Shown: piece by piece, positions 46,095 to 56,200 of the stretch | Position numbering within the stretch: position 1 is the first letter of the stretch | How the letters are laid out: each line of letters begins with the position of its first letter | NCBI GenBank assembly: GCA_963693055.1 | Contig: OY843751.1 | Coordinates: 96,001 to 160,000, forward strand | Reading direction: 5' to 3' | Source: a bacterium | GTDB lineage: Bacteria > Zhuqueibacterota > Zhuqueibacteria > Residuimicrobiales > Krinioviventaceae | Length of the DNA: 64,000 bases | Made by a program: the position numbers and the translations under genes | The notes under the pieces: generated by a model | What the model was told of the DNA's origin: nothing | Seen by the model: only the letters and a program-made list of their open reading frames with translations | The model's database searches: none

Positions 46095-47261
46095 CTAGTC
46101 TACCTTTTCCCTGAAATTCTCGATGCGATGAAAGGTTATATAGTTTGCATCGTGACAACCGGGGGGTGTTTCTTTACCGTCATCCCAGGCTGTGCGGGAT
46201 ACAAAGATGATATCGTCACCCTCAAAATGCCAGTCGGTGTACTGGAACCCGGTGATCTTGAAATTGGGATTCTCTAAAATAACCGCACGGATTTCCCAGT
46301 TTTTCAGGTCTTTGGAGCGGATGAGTGCCTGGGTGTTGCGGGTACGTTCAGGGTTCGGATTGCGGTATTTTTCCTGTATCCAGTTGGATAAGGACCAGTA
46401 ATATCCGGATTCGGGGTCAAACCGTATGGAGAATTTCTTGCATCCACCGGGGAATTCGATAATGTCGTCAGGGGGATTAAATTCGGATTTCCCGTCCGGT
46501 TGAATGTGGATGACCGCAGCCGTGCCGCCGGTTTCGGTATCGTGACGCAGAATGTTAACCAGCTCGCCGTCAGGGGTGAATATAGCATTACCTTCCAAAA
46601 ATCCGCCGCCGGGCCATTCCGTGTTCCAGGGAATACGTTCCGATTCGGTCCAGGATGATGCGTCCAACAGGTCTGCGTCTACCGGTGCGGACATGGTAAA
46701 CGAGATAAAACATTCACCCCATTTTTTAGACTTGTCGGTTTCTTCGAAAGAGCGGTACAATCTGCCGTTATGTTCGGTAACAGGCATAGGAGCGCAGTGA
46801 TAATGACCGTCATTGTGCAGCAGACCGGATTTCTCATCAACAGGTTCGGTCCAGGTAGCACCGCCATCGTCCGAACGCCGGATGATCATTTGTCCATGCT
46901 GATTATTGGTGCCCAGAATATAAAGCGCCCCCTTGTGCACAAACAAATTAGACCAGAACTGTTTTTCAAGTGTGGCAATCAGTTTCCAGGTTTTACCCTT
47001 GTCCGTTGATCTGAAAATGCGGCTCTTTGAGTCATCCGCTTCCTTGGAATTGGGGCCAAAAAAATCATGCGAGGCCACATAGCTGCCATCCGGCAGAATC
47101 GCCAAACTGGGAGAGCCCATATATAATCCTGATGACGGGGCAGAATAGGTCACAACCACTCCGGGGGGAGGCGTGTAAACATCTTTGGAAGCGCATCCGG
47201 TTATTATAAATATTGAACAGAGAACAATGGATACCCATGCTACAATTCTTGGTTTTGACAT
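46095..47261 (-). CDS. BNR/Asp-box sialidase-like lipoprotein, paralogue A
   Basis: STDKGKTW, SDDGGATW and SKDLKNW Asp-boxes; ITGC lipobox. Confidence 0.8.
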   Translation of the reverse strand: MSKPRIVAWVSIVLCSIFIITGCASKDVYTPPPGVVVTYSAPSSGLYMGSPSLAILPDGSYVASHDFFGPNSKEADDSKSRIFRSTDKGKTWKLIATLEKQFWSNLFVHKGALYILGTNNQHGQMIIRRSDDGGATWTEPVDEKSGLLHNDGHYHCAPMPVTEHNGRLYRSFEETDKSKKWGECFISFTMSAPVDADLLDASSWTESERIPWNTEWPGGGFLEGNAIFTPDGELVNILRHDTETGGTAAVIHIQPDGKSEFNPPDDIIEFPGGCKKFSIRFDPESGYYWSLSNWIQEKYRNPNPERTRNTQALIRSKDLKNWEIRAVILENPNFKITGFQYTDWHFEGDDIIFVSRTAWDDGKETPPGCHDANYITFHRIENFREKVD

Positions 47262-47311
47262 GGAGCGTGATTCCTTTTATGGTGTATGTTTTGTTGTTTA
47301 TTCTTGGTTTA

Positions 47312-48472
47312 TTAATCCATTTTTGTTCTAAAGTTTTTGATACGGTGAAAAGTTATATAATTGGCATCATGGCAATTGGTGGGTGTGCCCCTGCCGTCAT
47401 CCCAGGCCGTGCGCGACAGGAATATGATGTCGTTTCCCTCGAATTGCCAATCCACATACTGGAAACCGGTAATTTTGACATCCGGGTGTTCTAGAATGAT
47501 AGAGCGGATTTCCCAGTTCAGCAGGTCTTTTGAACGAATAAGCGTTTGCGTATTGCGTACCATAGAAGGGGTTGGGGTTCGATATTTTTCCTGGATCCAG
47601 TTGGATAATGACCAGTAATATCCGGATTCCGGATCAAAACGAATGACGAATTTTTTACTGCCGCCGGGAAAGGAAATTATATTTTTAGCAGGATCGAATT
47701 GGGAAGAGCCATCCGGGTTAATGTGGATGACTGTAGCAGAGCCGCCATTTTTTGAATCATGACGAAGGATGTTTAACAGGTTTCCCTCAGGTGTGAATAC
47801 GGCATTGCCTTCAAGATAACCGTTGCCGGGCCATTCAGGATTAAAGGGAATGCGCTCTGTACTGGTCCAGGATGCGGCATTAAGCAGATCGGCATCTACC
47901 GGCGCGGATATAACAAAAGCGAGAAAGCTTTCACCCCAACCGTTGAGGTCTCTGCGCTCTTCAAATGCACGATACAGTCTGCCGTTATGTTCGATTACCG
48001 GCATGGGCGCGCAATGATATTTACTATCACTGTACAAAAGACCGGATTTGTCGTCAACCGGCTCTGTCCATGTTACACCACCATCATCAGAACGTCGGAT
48101 TGACATAAAACCCGTTTGATTGCGGGTACCCAGAATATAGAGGGCGCCCTTGTGCACAAACAGATTGGACCAGTACTGATATTTAATAGTAGAAATCTGT
48201 TTCCAGGTTTCACCCTTGTCTGTTGATTTGAAGATTCTTGTAATAGCTTCAGTATGTTCAGTTGAATTGGGTCCATACTCGTCGTGCGAGGCCAGATAAC
48301 TGCCGTCCGGCAGAATTGCCAGGCTGGGAGAACCGGTATAAATCCCGGAAGATGGTGGAGAATAGGTCACTACCACACCGGGTGGCGGGCTAATTTCTGA
48401 TTTGGGGGAACAGCCGGTTAATGCAAGAATACAAAGAGTGATAATGCCGAATAAAAAAAACCTGGATTTCAT
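47312..48472 (-). CDS. BNR/Asp-box sialidase-like lipoprotein, paralogue B
   Basis: STDKGETW and SDDGGVTW Asp-boxes; LTGC lipobox; collinear with paralogue A. Confidence 0.8.
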   Translation of the reverse strand: MKSRFFLFGIITLCILALTGCSPKSEISPPPGVVVTYSPPSSGIYTGSPSLAILPDGSYLASHDEYGPNSTEHTEAITRIFKSTDKGETWKQISTIKYQYWSNLFVHKGALYILGTRNQTGFMSIRRSDDGGVTWTEPVDDKSGLLYSDSKYHCAPMPVIEHNGRLYRAFEERRDLNGWGESFLAFVISAPVDADLLNAASWTSTERIPFNPEWPGNGYLEGNAVFTPEGNLLNILRHDSKNGGSATVIHINPDGSSQFDPAKNIISFPGGSKKFVIRFDPESGYYWSLSNWIQEKYRTPTPSMVRNTQTLIRSKDLLNWEIRSIILEHPDVKITGFQYVDWQFEGNDIIFLSRTAWDDGRGTPTNCHDANYITFHRIKNFRTKMD

Positions 48473-49816: not shown

Positions 49817-51061
49817 TTATTGATTCATGGGTACGGTTGCTTTATAGAGCAGTGCGGGTGACTCTGTTTTTACGGAATAGGGCATATCAGCGGGAACGAA
49901 AAACGCCTCGCCCCGTTTGCGGTTGATCACATTGGTTTTGCCGCAAACGTCTACTGATCCCTCTAAAACGATCCATATATCGGCGCCGTGTTGTTCCTGG
50001 CTTTTATATCGATTATCACGATCAATACAAACACGGGACAGTTCAAAATCAGGTGCCGGGGTAGAGTAGACAGATTCAACTTTGGAAATATTTTCTCCCC
50101 TGATGATATCGGGGTGTTGGCCTTTAAAATTCAGGGTTTTTAGCAGTTCCGGTACATCCACATGTTTGGGGGTTAATCCCCCGCGCAGCACATTGTCCGA
50201 GTTTGCCATCAATTCCATATTGGTGCCCTGCAGATAGGCGTGCGGTGCTCCGGCTGCCTGAAAAGTGGCTTCCCCGGGTTTGAGGTGGATCAAATTAAAC
50301 AGATAAAGAGAAAATATCCCCCGATCGCGATGACCGCCTTCAATTGGGAATTTTATTGATGCCTGTACTGCCCAGTAATCGGGGTTCTCTTTGTTCAATT
50401 CACGATTGTAATATTTGGGTGTCAAGCGGCTCAGCATGGGATTCAGGATTGAATCCACTTCTGTTTGGGGCAGCTGCATGATATGACTATACAGTGCCTC
50501 AATGCCACCCTCTTTAAAAACGGGCAACAGTGATGCAAACTCTTCGGTCTTTTCTAAAAGATGATCAATCTCCTGGGCTTCGCGAAAGCTGTGCAGCATC
50601 CAAAAATCGGTCAGGGCTACATGCACTTCCGGCTTGTGGTTGTCGTCTTTGTAATTGCGGTTTGGTGCATTCAGCGCAATGCCTGCCTTGTTTTCACGTT
50701 CAAAGCCAGCTTCTGCCTGTTCCTTTGAGGGGTGCACCTGAATAGAGAGCATGTCTCTTGCGTCCAATACTTTGAACAGATACGGCAAACTTGGGCCAAA
50801 CCGATCAAGGGTTTCTTTGCCAAGCAGCATGTCCGGCGATTTGTTGATCAGTTCATTCAATAACGCCTGATCGTCATGAACGCAGGCCGTTGAAGGGGCC
50901 TTGTCGTGCGCGCCTAGCCAGTATTCGGCAAAAGATTTTTGGTCATTGTTTTCAATGTTAATCAAATTGGGGATATAGCGGGTGCCGCCCCAACTGTAAT
51001 GCTGTACAACACCTGTTAATTCAAAAATATATGGTTTTTTTAACGGTTCTGATAAGCTCAT
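49817..51061 (-). CDS. manA: Mannose-6-phosphate isomerase, class I
   Basis: YSWGG, AEYWLGAH, LSIQVHP, NHKPE, PHAY and NSDNVLRGGLTPK motifs. Confidence 0.93.
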   Translation of the reverse strand: MSLSEPLKKPYIFELTGVVQHYSWGGTRYIPNLINIENNDQKSFAEYWLGAHDKAPSTACVHDDQALLNELINKSPDMLLGKETLDRFGPSLPYLFKVLDARDMLSIQVHPSKEQAEAGFERENKAGIALNAPNRNYKDDNHKPEVHVALTDFWMLHSFREAQEIDHLLEKTEEFASLLPVFKEGGIEALYSHIMQLPQTEVDSILNPMLSRLTPKYYNRELNKENPDYWAVQASIKFPIEGGHRDRGIFSLYLFNLIHLKPGEATFQAAGAPHAYLQGTNMELMANSDNVLRGGLTPKHVDVPELLKTLNFKGQHPDIIRGENISKVESVYSTPAPDFELSRVCIDRDNRYKSQEQHGADIWIVLEGSVDVCGKTNVINRKRGEAFFVPADMPYSVKTESPALLYKATVPMNQ

Positions 51062-51223
51062 AGAATCTCCGGTTTTCTTATAAAATACTAATTTATAAAC
51101 ATTATTGAAACAGTAAAATTGGACCGTTCTGTTCATTGCTTTGCTTGTCAGGTAAAAAGAAATAGTCCGTAGCCAGAGCCTGTGGCCCGGGTTTCATACA
51201 TTTAAAAAAATCCCGGGAGAATT

Positions 51224-51780
51224 GTCTGAATTAAGATTTTTAAGATTCAAGGATGAAAGGATAAAAAATAGGCCCGATTAGCTGTAGAACGGATTTTTTT
51301 TCGTTTACCCACCTCAGGTGGGTTATAAATAACCGCAGATTAAAATGTTTTCTTTGTGGCTTAATGCCTTTGTGAGATTTTTTTATGGGTCACACAAAGG
51401 CGCCAAGGCACCAAGAAAAACAGCCATACTATGATTCGTGGGCAATTTGCCGATCATGACGGAGAAAAGTGCAGCGTTCTGCCTCACGCTTAAAAGCCGG
51501 TTGCTGAATGCGAGTCTGTTAAAGCGGACGAGCGTATCGAAGCATTGGCGATTCATTCTCGTGTACGGGCTCGACCTGGTTTCGCATCGTCTGAATTAAG
51601 ATTAATAGGATGAAAAGATTATAGGACTAAAAACAAACCAAAGTGACACAAACAATGTAGAACGAAATGTATTTCGTTTGTCCGCTGAAAGCGGACTGCC
51701 TCCCTTTATTATCAATAACCGGTGCCTGAGTTTGAATCCATTCGCCAAGGGTGAATGGATTCAAGTATCGAAGGCCTGGT
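51224..51780. repeat. Cluster of short palindromic, REP-like and direct repeats
   Basis: GTCTGAATTAAGATT at 51224 and 51589; GTAG-led hairpins at 51284 and 51657; imperfect IR ~51347-51420; TTGAATCCATTCGCC...GGTGAATGGATTCAA hairpin ~51732-51764. Confidence 0.75.
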
Positions 51781-51800
51781 ATGAATCTTGTTTTTTTCTA

Positions 51801-51850
51801 TGATTGCGACATAGATTTTTTGCATCGCGGCATGTTGACTCGGGACGTAA
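51801..51850. repeat. Boundary repeat copy 0 (degenerate)
   Basis: TGATTGCGACATAGATTTTTTGCATCGCGG-N11-GGGAC-GTAA aligns with copies at 52882 and 54003. Confidence 0.65.
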
Positions 51851-51947
51851 CAAAGAACAAGGGCCGTTTACTCTTTCTCCTCCTGGTCCCAATCCCCTCG
51901 GTTAGTGATAACCGATAACAAAAAATTGCTCAAGAACACAATTCCTC

Positions 51948-51976
51948 TTGACAAGATCGAAAAATTTATCTATCCT
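51948..51976 (+). promoter_or_regulatory. Sigma70 promoter of cassette 1
   Basis: TTGACA-N17-TATCCT; position conserved in cassette 2. Confidence 0.7.
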
Positions 51977-51986
51977 AAAAAGGAAA

Positions 51987-52190
51987 AGTGCTGGATTTAT
52001 AAATTATAACGAGTGACGAGGGAACTCGTTTGTAATTCAGCGCTTCACGGGGTCGTACTACACGTGAATACTGTAATCTAATTCGCAAAGAGATGCTCAT
52101 GTACTGTGGGGTACAATATGAAAGCAAGGGGAGACGCCTTCAGGCCGCCGTAGAGGTATGCTAAATTCAAGATCAATTTATAAAAGGAGT
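51987..52190 (+). ncRNA. Candidate structured leader RNA, copy 1 (unknown family)
   Basis: 13 differences in 209 nt versus copy 2 (manual count); several stems; lies between promoter and RBS. Confidence 0.6.
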
Positions 52191-52195
52191 TAATA

Positions 52196-52861
52196 ATGAA
52201 ACGTCTTTGTATTGTTTTAATTTTATTCTCTTTATCATCCATATATGCTGATAGTAATTATGGAATCAAAATAGGAACTAATTTTTCAAAGTTCAGATCG
52301 ATTGAAACAAAAGCAAAACCGGGAACAACACTATGTTTTTATAAAAATAATCCGGTAAATACATATTTTTCAATTAATTTAGAATTGATGTATTCTGCTA
52401 AAAAAGGAGAAATGAATGATGTTATTTTAGGTGGAACATATACTGGGGCTATTTTTTCACATAATATAAATTATTCCATAGGAGTAATAGAATTCCCATT
52501 ATTATTAAAAAACCATTATCAAATAAATAAAAAAATAGGATTTAACCTTTATGCCGGCCCGTCTTTTTCTACAAGAATATTTTACATGTCAAAAACTAAT
52601 AGACAGGAATTCCTTTTTGAAATTCACGATATGGATGATTGGTCGTATGTGAAATATGATTATGATTATATTCTGGAAATGGGAAATCCGGCATTTGAGC
52701 ATGGTTTGAGCATTCATGGCGGATTCTCAATATCAGTACATCACTTTTTGTTAGATTTTCGATATATGTATGATTTCTATGAAATTCAAACAGTGGGAAA
52801 AGCTGATATTGATGATGAAGAGATGCATTCATATTTAATTTTATTGGGGTATGAGTTTTAA
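52196..52861 (+). CDS. Outer-membrane beta-barrel protein (PorT/OMP_b-brl-like), copy 1
   Basis: Signal peptide; YGIKIGTNFS; IEFPLLLK; AGPSFS; terminal LGYEF BAM signal. Confidence 0.8.
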   Translation: MKRLCIVLILFSLSSIYADSNYGIKIGTNFSKFRSIETKAKPGTTLCFYKNNPVNTYFSINLELMYSAKKGEMNDVILGGTYTGAIFSHNINYSIGVIEFPLLLKNHYQINKKIGFNLYAGPSFSTRIFYMSKTNRQEFLFEIHDMDDWSYVKYDYDYILEMGNPAFEHGLSIHGGFSISVHHFLLDFRYMYDFYEIQTVGKADIDDEEMHSYLILLGYEF

Positions 52862-52881
52862 TTTTTGGAGGGAAAATGAAC

Positions 52882-52939
52882 TGATCGCGATGCAGATTTC
52901 TGCATCGCGGATTATCAAATAGGGACATTCGTCCCGTAA
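52882..52939. repeat. Boundary repeat copy 1 (two hairpins)
   Basis: CGCGATGCAG-ATTT-CTGCATCGCG then GGGAC-ATTC-GTCCC. Confidence 0.8.
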
Positions 52940-53068
52940 TTGCTTTGTATGCAACCAGGACAAATGCCCTGATATATTTCCAACCCGGAACTTCCGATGT
53001 GCCGGGCTATTAAAAACTTTAATATTTTGGAATATAGTAAAAAAATTTTCTATTTATCATAATTTATC

Positions 53069-53097
53069 TTGACAAAGATAAAATTTTTATTTATTGT
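53069..53097 (+). promoter_or_regulatory. Sigma70 promoter of cassette 2
   Basis: TTGACA-N17-TATTGT, exactly 1121 nt after promoter 1. Confidence 0.7.
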
Positions 53098-53107
53098 AAA
53101 AAAGAAG

Positions 53108-53311
53108 AGTGCTGGATACGAAAATTTTAACGAGTGAGGAGGGAACTCACTTGTAATTCAGCGCTTCACGGGGTCGTACTACACGTGAATACTATAATCT
53201 AATACGCAAAGAGATGCTCATGTACTGTGGGGTACAATATGAAAGCAAGGGGAGACGCCTTCAGGCCGCCGTAGATGTATGCTAAATTCAAGATCAATTT
53301 ATAAAGGGAGT
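53108..53311 (+). ncRNA. Candidate structured leader RNA, copy 2
   Basis: Collinear with 51987-52190 without indels; hairpin retained despite substitutions. Confidence 0.6.
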
Positions 53312-53316
53312 TGATA

Positions 53317-53982
53317 ATGAAGCGACTTTGTTTTGTTATTTTATTATTGCTTGTATCTTCTGTTTATGCTAAAAATAACTTTGGAATTAAATTTGGAAAA
53401 AATTTTTCATCCTTCAGATCAATGGATTCAAAGGCAAAAGCAGGAAATATGTATGGTGCTTTTAAAGATTTGTCAATATATAAGAATTTTAATATTAGAT
53501 TTGAATTAATATGTTCCTATAAAAAGGGAGAAATTTATGATTTGATTTTAGGTGGTACCTATACAGGAAGAATTTTCTCGAATAACATTTATTATTCTTT
53601 ATGTATTTTCGAATTTCCAATTTTGTTGAAAAATAGTCATCCTTTATTTAGTAAAAAGATAAATTTTTATTATTTTACTGGTCCCTCTTTTTCAACCAGA
53701 TTTGCCGATGGTTCAAAAACAGAAAGACAAGAATATCTTTTTAATGTTAACAAAATGGAAGATTGGGCAAATGTCGAATATGATTATGATTATATTTTAG
53801 AGGGTGGCCCATCATTTGAACATGGTTGGAGTTTGCATTCAGGATTTGGATTGTCAGTTTTTCATATTTCGTTAGAATTTCGGTATATATATGATTTCTA
53901 TGAAATTCAAACAGTGGGAAAAGCTGATATTGATGATGAAGAGATGCATTCATATTTAATTTTATTGGGGTATGAGTTTTAA
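53317..53982 (+). CDS. Outer-membrane beta-barrel protein (PorT/OMP_b-brl-like), copy 2
   Basis: Paralogue of 52196-52861; last 30 aa identical. Confidence 0.8.
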   Translation: MKRLCFVILLLLVSSVYAKNNFGIKFGKNFSSFRSMDSKAKAGNMYGAFKDLSIYKNFNIRFELICSYKKGEIYDLILGGTYTGRIFSNNIYYSLCIFEFPILLKNSHPLFSKKINFYYFTGPSFSTRFADGSKTERQEYLFNVNKMEDWANVEYDYDYILEGGPSFEHGWSLHSGFGLSVFHISLEFRYIYDFYEIQTVGKADIDDEEMHSYLILLGYEF

Positions 53983-54002
53983 TTTTTGGAGGGAAAATGA
54001 AC

Positions 54003-54060
54003 TGATCGCGATGCAGATTTCTGCATCGTGGATTATCATATAGGGACATTCGTCCCGTAA
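54003..54060. repeat. Boundary repeat copy 2
   Basis: CGCGATGCAGATTTCTGCATCGTG and GGGACATTCGTCCC. Confidence 0.8.
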
Positions 54061-54120
54061 AAATCCCACCCGGCATTAGCCAACTGGCGGGTAGCCGAGT
54101 GATCAACTATTTATACTGAA

Positions 54121-55392: not shown

Positions 55393-56190
55393 ATGAAAAA
55401 AAGTAATCCCGGTATTTTTTCTGCTTTTGTTGTTCTGTGAAACTACAAAATCTCCATTTCAACCCGACGAGTTTGTCATCTCGTTCAATCACCCCATTGA
55501 TTCCACGTATGTAGTAAAGTCTGAAGATATGTTACTGAGATCGGCTTATACAAGTCAATCCCAACACCAGTTGAATTCCTTTTGTGATACCTGGAACAAA
55601 GTTTATGCGCAAGAAGCAGTTCATCCAAATTATAATTCAGATTGGGACAAGGAAATATATCAACTGTTTTATGATTTCTACAAGCCATCAGAAGGGTATC
55701 TTGAATCTGAATACCTGGTGTTGCAGAACGAGATTGTTTATATTGTGGTGAATTCCAGCAATTACGGGGTTGGTGCGGCAGTTGAATATTCAGCATTGGA
55801 CTTGACGAAATAACTCCGTTCTGCCCACAGGTTCGGGATACCGGTCAGCAAGTCCTTTATTTAACGGATCGTTATTCCGAGGTACTTAATTTTTACATTT
55901 CCGAGTATTCCGGTTCAGAGAGCTTTTACAACTCTGAATGGCAGCCTTGGGAGTATGTGCGGGATAAGGTTGGTTTCCTTGATCGTAAATTCGCGCTCTA
56001 TCACAACCACTGGGTACCGTCTTTTCATTATTATTCTTTTCCATATGTTTCAATGGTGATCATGAATGAGGATGAGCCCAAGGCCATTTTGTTGTACCGC
56101 GATTCCTGGTGCACGTGAGGTGCTGCGGAATATGAAAAGGCAGGAACAGCGTGGAAACATATCCAAACGTTTTATAACTGGATCGAATAA
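55393..56190 (+). pseudogene. Degraded lipoprotein gene with two frameshifts and one nonsense codon
   Basis: ATG+A7 shifts out of the signal peptide MKKVIPVFFLLLLFC; second frame from ~55801 runs to ...NWIE* with TGA at 56116. Confidence 0.7.
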
Positions 56191-56200
56191 GAATTCTTTC

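Follow-up and report, generated by a model that had tools for sequence, protein, structure and literature searches.

The stretch of DNA analyzed here (the window; 64,000 nt, positions 96,001 to 160,000 of contig OY843751.1 in GenBank assembly GCA_963693055.1, read on the forward strand) belongs to a genome, G000, from a little-studied lineage of the Zhuqueibacterota. Between manA and a GH43 gene it carries an array of two units, each made up of a predicted promoter, a conserved 5' leader and a gene for a predicted outer-membrane protein (OMP1 and OMP2), and each closed by R, a palindrome of the repetitive extragenic palindromic (REP) type (Table 1). The array is two promoter-leader-barrel modules at one of several hypervariable loci. 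Sequence comparison, chiefly with the genome of a sister species, G001 (98% complete), is what shows duplication of the unit, recent conversion of its 3' end, formation of a chimera, relocation of a barrel gene, turnover behind the leader and dispersal of R. These events probably mark a recombination hotspot without a dedicated enzyme, at which the shared leader, the gene ends and the REP hairpins anchor general homologous recombination.

The two units and their barrel proteins

With the units set at their offset of 1121 bp, the leaders are identical at 196 of 209 positions (93.8%), the coding cores (52196-52768 in unit 1) at 389 of 576 (67.5%) and the 3' tracts at 169 of 171, including 93 of 93 in the final coding nucleotides; the two real differences of the 3' tract both lie inside R. 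A first-pass annotation of the window, made from the letters alone, had described a leader of ~94% identity, a strongly diverged core, a 171-nt 3' end with only two differences and a palindromic repeat closing each unit, and all of this is borne out, both palindromes folding far better than shuffled sequences. At the divergence of the core the probability of two differences or fewer in 171 nt is ~2e-26; because the tail is identical at synonymous sites as well, recent conversion is preferred over protein constraint, and the 3' tract points to a recent gene conversion. The third copy of R that the annotation placed at 51801 is real but degenerate, and R, with 55 copies in the genome, is not specific to the array. 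Its picture of uniform cassettes bounded by R does not hold, since the heads of the units are unlike and the spacers between R and promoter align poorly.

The duplication itself can be followed in the short-read runs X1 and X3, which are one sample, possibly the source of the G000 assembly. Unitigs hold each core separately, at depths of 7.6 and 8.4 (X1) and 5.3 and 5.0 (X3), and a shared 139-nt unitig has double that depth, 16.7 (X1) and 10 (X3); single depth on the cores with double depth on the common tail means that the duplication is real and not an assembly collapse. The GC content is 28% for OMP1 and 27% for OMP2, compared with 46-47% for the flanking genes.

OMP1 matches PF13568 (OMP_b-brl_2) at 37 bits (cut-off 27), and its structure model (predicted local distance difference test, pLDDT, 84) is an 8-stranded barrel with OmpA, OmpX/Ail and OmpW as top fold matches; OMP2 has no Pfam match alone and was assigned to the barrel family because it is 63% identical to OMP1. 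With 4292 representatives at E<=0.001 in a profile search the family is a large one, and G000 has 18 barrel genes of the PF13568 kind in total; a word-index protein search with OMP1 and OMP2 returned the two window proteins only. With loop limits read by eye from the OMP1 model, identity between OMP1 and OMP2 is 17/23 in loop L2, 24/38 in L3 and 15/15 in L4, and ranges from 5/15 to 12/12 in predicted strands, so that the differences do not appear concentrated in loops, and the identical tail itself contains predicted loop 4.

Table 1. Features of the array and its borders (window positions; all on the + strand)
Feature	Position	Strand	Remark
Upstream hairpin-repeat mosaic	51655-51800	+	Part of head common to other leader loci; twice in G001 array
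Degenerate R copy, hairpin lost	51801-51847	+	nhmmer E 0.0034; fold z +0.26
Predicted sigma-70-type promoter 1, TTGACA-17-TATCCT	51948-51976	+	Same register in all leader copies
Conserved ~200-nt 5' leader 1	51987-52195	+	Predicted helix P1, 51987-51994 with 52037-52044
CCGCCRTAG motif, leader 1	52145-52153	+	~51 nt upstream of start codon
OMP1, 221 aa, predicted 8-stranded outer-membrane beta-barrel (PF13568)	52196-52861	+	
Crossover patch of G001 OMP1/OMP2 chimera, 7 common letters	52691-52698	+	
First copy of recently converted tract; holds predicted loop 4, strand 8, stop codon, stub and R	52769-52939	+	
Ribosome-binding site and ATG-AAC, likely gene stub cut at R	52867-52881	+	G001 continues here into a further barrel gene
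R, GATC-tagged double hairpin, REP-like	52882-52936	+	Fold z -5.05
Inverted companion arm; R and arm form a REP dimer like a REP doublet forming hairpin (REPIN) or bacterial interspersed mosaic element (BIME)	52956-53014	+	Read from sequence
Predicted promoter 2, TTGACA-17-TATTGT	53069-53097	+	
Conserved leader 2; motif at 53266-53274	53108-53316	+	
OMP2, 221-aa paralogue of OMP1	53317-53982	+	Not found whole in G001
Second copy of recently converted tract	53890-54060	+	
R copy (54003-54057; fold z -4.32) and shortened companion arm, TGATCA at end	54003-54105	+	

Comparison with the sister species and turnover behind the leader

From manA to the GH43 gene the order in G001 is R, head and half leader, an LRR/PKD lipoprotein gene, a head copy with a full leader, barrel 1, barrel 2, R, a divergent leader, barrel 3 and R. 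Barrel 1 agrees with OMP1 at 502 of 505 positions, then with OMP2 at 66 of 68 (OMP1, 48 of 68), and then with both at 93 of 93. Its unit-1 part is 99.4% identical to OMP1 compared with 93-94% for three neighbouring genes, each with ~60 synonymous codon changes (p 6e-11), and because of this difference the chimera points to a recent transfer between the species together with a crossover between paralogues. The crossover is covered by contigs in two samples of one study; contigs of runs X4 and X5 join 52691 to 53813 at the 7 common letters, a step of exactly one unit. Barrel 2 is the orthologue, with a more divergent 5' end, of the G000 barrel at 6441442, another leader locus, and at the two other syntenic leader loci the gene content of G000 and G001 differs. 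The junctions fall in coding sequence, in mid-leader and in several repeat families; neither the crossover of the chimera nor the junction in mid-leader coincides with a REP.

The chimera, the relocated barrel and the different genes behind the leader support the central idea of the annotation, that conserved flanks act as recombination handles through which barrels are swapped or converted. Chimeric OMPs, which it proposed to look for in reads, are present in short-read contigs, comparison of the locus with G001 revealed a changed array (the chimera, the relocated barrel and a captured LRR lipoprotein), and the opposite case that it had considered, a fixed two-gene locus with no other copies of the repeat, is contradicted both by the G001 array and by the 55 copies of R.

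G000 has five full copies of the leader and one partial copy, all of them preceding barrel genes, and G001 has five; between loci and between species the leader cores agree at 93-99%, whereas the identity to OMP1 of the barrels that follow is mostly 19-25%. None of the six leader-bearing barrels of G000 has a plain orthologue in G001 (four were not found, one is chimeric and one has moved), compared with 10 of the 12 leaderless barrels (Fisher p=0.0015; collinearity of orthologues judged from coordinates).

We infer from these sequences that the leader is a functional cis-regulatory 5' element. The promoter-like TTGACA-17-TAnnnT stands in the same register in both units; a promoter scan by itself gives about what chance would (14 sites, 13 expected). 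In the helix model of the leader all cells (117 of 117) pair, and the 2 pairs with changes on both sides come from one G001 copy, 55% identical, in which both modelled helices are kept; 5 of 500 shuffles reach this result. No Rfam family came near its gathering score for the leader, and exact leader patterns had no match in metagenome contigs and matches in 2 of 125 class genomes; in the searches made, the full leader did not turn up outside the genus. The motif CCGCCRTAG has 4 exact matches upstream of the 4649 G000 genes, all 4 of them before leader barrels, and in a slightly relaxed form, with one mismatch allowed, it precedes 8 of 54 distant class barrels and 8 of 169 other open reading frames (ORFs) (p=0.03; 3 of the distant motif loci had been seen before the motif was defined), lying at -51 to -58 before 7 of those 8 distant barrels. 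A portion of the leader seems to be old and shared across the class. An antitermination leader of the RfaH/ops type would need a NusG paralogue in the genome; this candidate was dropped, as each genome has one PF02357 (NusG) match and no paralogue.

At 14 of 42 distant class loci the gene directly after the barrel encodes a homologue of a secreted beta-helix protein of ~1130-1140 aa with a FlgD/Por-type tail (the pair recurs at loci L016, 3826-7254 on the minus strand, L226, L227, L228, L229, L230 and L231), and G001 retains one intact barrel and beta-helix pair. The ancestral class-wide unit appears to be leader, barrel and large secreted beta-helix protein, of which the last two could be an anchor and cargo pair; a complex prediction for the G001 barrel and its beta-helix neighbour, folded without alignments, scored 0.00 and speaks neither for nor against such a pair. 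In G000 a partner stub persists at two leader loci, both beta-helix N-termini (E 1.5e-10 and 2e-7), and in the window just the ribosome-binding site and ATG-AAC are left before R, a stub that may derive from the beta-helix partner or from another barrel. In G000 and G001 alike, the barrel frames examined next to a leader are intact and their partner genes broken; all six independent truncations after leader barrels in the two genomes stop at a REP-family hairpin, as judged by eye.

Three further points of comparison with G001 lie in the window. The 5' end of manA and the region upstream (50969-51331), possibly the left anchor of a recent exchange, are 98-100% identical to G001, the whole gene ~93%. 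Two tandem paralogous secreted proteins of ~387 aa are encoded at 46095-48472, where G001 has three, and a probable lipoprotein gene at 55394-56200 is seemingly broken (128-aa ORF; 270 aa in G001).

R, related hairpins and RAYT genes

R consists of two hairpins, and its 5' tag is GATC, not the canonical GTAG. An iterated nhmmer profile finds 55 matches in G000, 50 of them outside genes (as defined by the crude caller used for all genome-wide counts of R, motif and intervals); 39 of the 55 share the strand of their nearest 5' gene, many of these genes being ordinary ones, and R also stands 3' of conserved housekeeping genes. The pattern of R has 50 copies in G001, none in four other genomes of the family, and none in metagenome contigs, a search that may exclude records near G000. 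R is often paired with an inverted companion arm, within mosaics of several hairpin families that differ between G000 and G001, and GATCG is the top enriched 5-mer before perfect hairpins in G000 (15, with 1.1 expected). Variants of the R loop look locus-specific. Same-strand runs of R with species-specific inserted genes, among them a secreted esterase, a BNR lipoprotein and a nuclease-fold protein, occur in G000 at 3708000-3715000 (compared with L017), 1410700-1413000 (L019) and 4926000 (L020).

An intact gene for a REP-associated tyrosine transposase (RAYT) lies in G001 (L109; G001:C3:340671-341201), embedded in a lengthy tandem series of GATC-tagged REPs; the sister hairpins beside it have R's tag and tail. 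RAYT relatives in other class genomes have GATC-tagged hairpins at 4 of 29 loci (by eye), one with the loop and tail of R and one with its second hairpin. Given the dispersed extragenic copies, the GATC tag and the sister hairpins around a RAYT, R would work like a REP. The window holds no tyrosine recombinase, resolvase, Y1 transposase or RAYT match, in agreement with the first-pass annotation. Its suggestion that RAYT, IS110 or tyrosine recombinase genes might stand beside other copies of the repeat holds in part: REPs with the same tag do flank the G001 RAYT, but no IS110 was found in either genome (0/2), and no RAYT with chiefly R copies around it turned up in G000, G001 or the 29 class loci.

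The other RAYT or IS200-like genes of G000 and G001 each have their own hairpin family, so that several REP systems seem to coexist. A RAYT flanked by GTAG-tagged hairpins is at different loci in G000 (6442346-6442805, compared with L031) and G001; the G000 gene is frameshifted, its REP cuts off a gene start just past a leader barrel, and after it, at 6443119, comes what we take to be an IS1182-like transposase.

Mechanism, alternatives and known systems

Under general homologous recombination at a hotspot, the functional leader would have been duplicated along with its barrel, kept for its cis-regulatory function and further homogenised by conversion, its role as a handle being a by-product. 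Leader, gene ends and REP mosaics would then supply the homology on which both conversion and the acquisition of sister-species sequence draw, through RecA-type recombination within the chromosome and with sister DNA, anchored by long identity at one end and able to resolve at microhomology at the other; a ComEC gene is present. The handle would be mainly the shared regulatory leader, because most barrels are too divergent for direct recombination. R would be a REP that owes its spread to a transposase of the RAYT type, and the beta-helix partner would have been lost through deletions linked to REPs. The turnover would alter the exposed barrel repertoire, and selection by phage on the barrels is possible. 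The crossover at a short patch beside 67%-identical sequence fits homology-facilitated illegitimate recombination (PMC4437187).

Several points weigh against the hotspot reading. Recombination is read from sequence comparison; the genus is represented by two genomes, and run X4 is identical to G001 and hence not independent of it. Two of the 12 leaderless barrels likewise have replaced or divergent alleles in G001 (these are G000 1411057-1411680, which has R on both sides, and 740292-740906). As regards the leader, its covariation rests on a single divergent sequence, the whole leader folds no better than shuffles (z -0.58), its covariance model finds 2 of 125 class genomes and nothing in the 123 others, the full model with filters off gave nothing significant at 28 distant barrel loci, and in a fresh test set the motif was present at only 2 of 28 loci (background 8/169). 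Finally, each of the six points where a partner gene is cut off has a REP hairpin, a hint that RAYT has a larger role than the hotspot reading gives it.

Such a role is the substance of the first alternative, which we regard as unlikely: a RAYT, as an HUH Y1 transposase recognising GATC-tagged REPs, would cut and rejoin single-stranded DNA at R and related hairpins, and so capture, delete and move genes between hairpins, with the barrel arrays as its products. Besides the truncations (two of the six stubs being the beta-helix N-termini), this is favoured by several gained genes whose 3' end comes within a few bases of R on its 5' side, by the intact G001 RAYT with same-tag REPs around it, and by the distribution of gene-sized indels. 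Among 780 intervals between orthologues, 336 with gaps of at least 100 bp in both genomes were kept, and indels were present in 5 of 9 R-adjacent intervals, 19 of 61 with other hairpins and 35 of 266 with neither; the blocks compared cover 1.25 Mb of G001, partly picked around R arrays, and include only 9 R intervals. R differs from hairpin-free intervals (p=0.004), but other hairpins are similarly linked to indels (R vs other hairpins, p=0.26). Moreover, no close relative of the G001 RAYT was found in G000, whose RAYT-like genes carry other REPs, the best match being frameshifted; the chimera crossover and the mid-leader junction lie away from REPs; and the bases directly 5' of R vary with no fixed dinucleotide, where REPs are cleaved at dinucleotides chosen by the tag (PMC8266576). 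An extension of this proposal carries a similarly low probability: that GATC-tagged REPs and their RAYT form an integrase-free gene-shuffling system in which nicks at R and sister hairpins capture, trim and reposition surface-protein genes behind a portable regulatory leader.

Neutral churn is less probable still. AT-rich accessory genes would simply accumulate, become duplicated and degenerate between genes where repeats are plentiful, with non-adaptive conversion, as is consistent with the reduction of partner genes to stubs, with turnover in all hairpin-rich intervals and with the lack of loop bias in the differences between OMP1 and OMP2. Against this stand the intact frames of the leader-adjacent barrels examined, beside broken partners, the specificity of turnover for barrels that have a leader (p=0.0015), and one allele that appears to have been transferred recently between species.

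An integron-like system, in which R would be an attachment site and a distant site-specific recombinase would move R-bounded cassettes, is very improbable, although the locus shares with integron cassette arrays same-strand repeat-gene-repeat runs of strain-specific content (here, R copies 1-3 kb apart). The consensus core sites of attC are RYYYAAC and GTTRRRY, and they occur in 0 of the 55 R copies. The best match to the integron integrase TIGR02249 is 81 bits (cut-off 265; G000 and G001), although a cassette array of the CALIN type does not need one in the genome; IS110 was not found, as noted above, and the one resolvase gene is far off the array. Unlike integron cassettes, the units have their own promoters and junctions that are not fixed; their heads are unlike, and R also follows housekeeping genes. 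With R lacking attC cores and a fixed 5' flank, and with junctions scattered, the annotation's alternative of units moved by a site-specific enzyme elsewhere is not sustained. An assembly collapse, which it had raised as a source of the identical 3' ends, has next to no chance of being correct: none of the short-read contigs listed covers the whole array region and X1/X3 may be the source sample, but the read depths, the two real differences within R and the occurrence of the same tail in G001 all speak against it.

Homologous recombination at shared flanks has its closest known counterpart in babA/babB/babC of H. pylori (PMC4552749), paralogous OMP genes at a few interchangeable loci with chimeras formed by conversion in conserved 5' and 3' regions. 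The bab-type traits, paralogues exchanged among fixed loci and chimeras with a crossover in shared sequence, are present here, where three syntenic leader loci differ in content between G000 and G001. In contrast to bab, the proteins are small predicted 8-stranded PF13568 barrels of mostly only ~20-25% identity, and the handle is largely a non-coding promoter-leader and REP mosaic. Capture extends to genes other than barrels, and phase-variable repeats were not observed. Dynamic mosaics of short palindromes beside variable surface-protein genes are also known from Neisseria, as arrays of neisserial intergenic mosaic elements (NIME) with dRS3 and as minimal mobile elements; the mosaics are proposed to promote exchange, and different cassettes lie between conserved genes (PMC1797815, PMC3898611). 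Those repeats are unrelated in sequence to R, which differs also in having RAYT-flanking relatives, and here a regulatory leader travels with the variable genes.

With REP/REPIN elements and their RAYT/TnpA-REP (PMC8266576, PMC6006769, PMC3733652) R shares dispersed, lineage-specific and mostly extragenic hairpins with a fixed 5' tag, often as inverted dimers, that flank a Y1 HUH gene of family NF047646; it differs in its tag, (T)GATC rather than GTAG or CGTC, and in its two hairpins. The string GATC is absent from the main text of PMC3733652 and PMC6006769, whose supplements may hold GATC-tagged REPs. Putative mobile promoters (PMC3575422) are alike in that near-identical upstream regions precede dissimilar coding sequences in one genome, whereas the genes here are mostly distant paralogues of one family and the leader appears to be partly old and class-wide. 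No paper on the array locus or the leader was found, as judged from titles and abstract openings.

The array extends multi-locus swapping of surface-protein genes, best known in host pathogens, to a little-studied lineage. It also offers leads in a GATC-tagged class of REPs with an intact candidate RAYT, in an uncatalogued motif at a fixed distance before class barrel genes, and in a recurring pair of barrel and beta-helix protein. If RAYT cutting does drive the swaps, the locus would bear on how RAYTs serve their hosts, a question that is still open; were the integrase-free shuffling system to prove true, it would supply that long-sought host function and reveal a new cis-regulatory element for operons of barrel and secreted beta-helix proteins.

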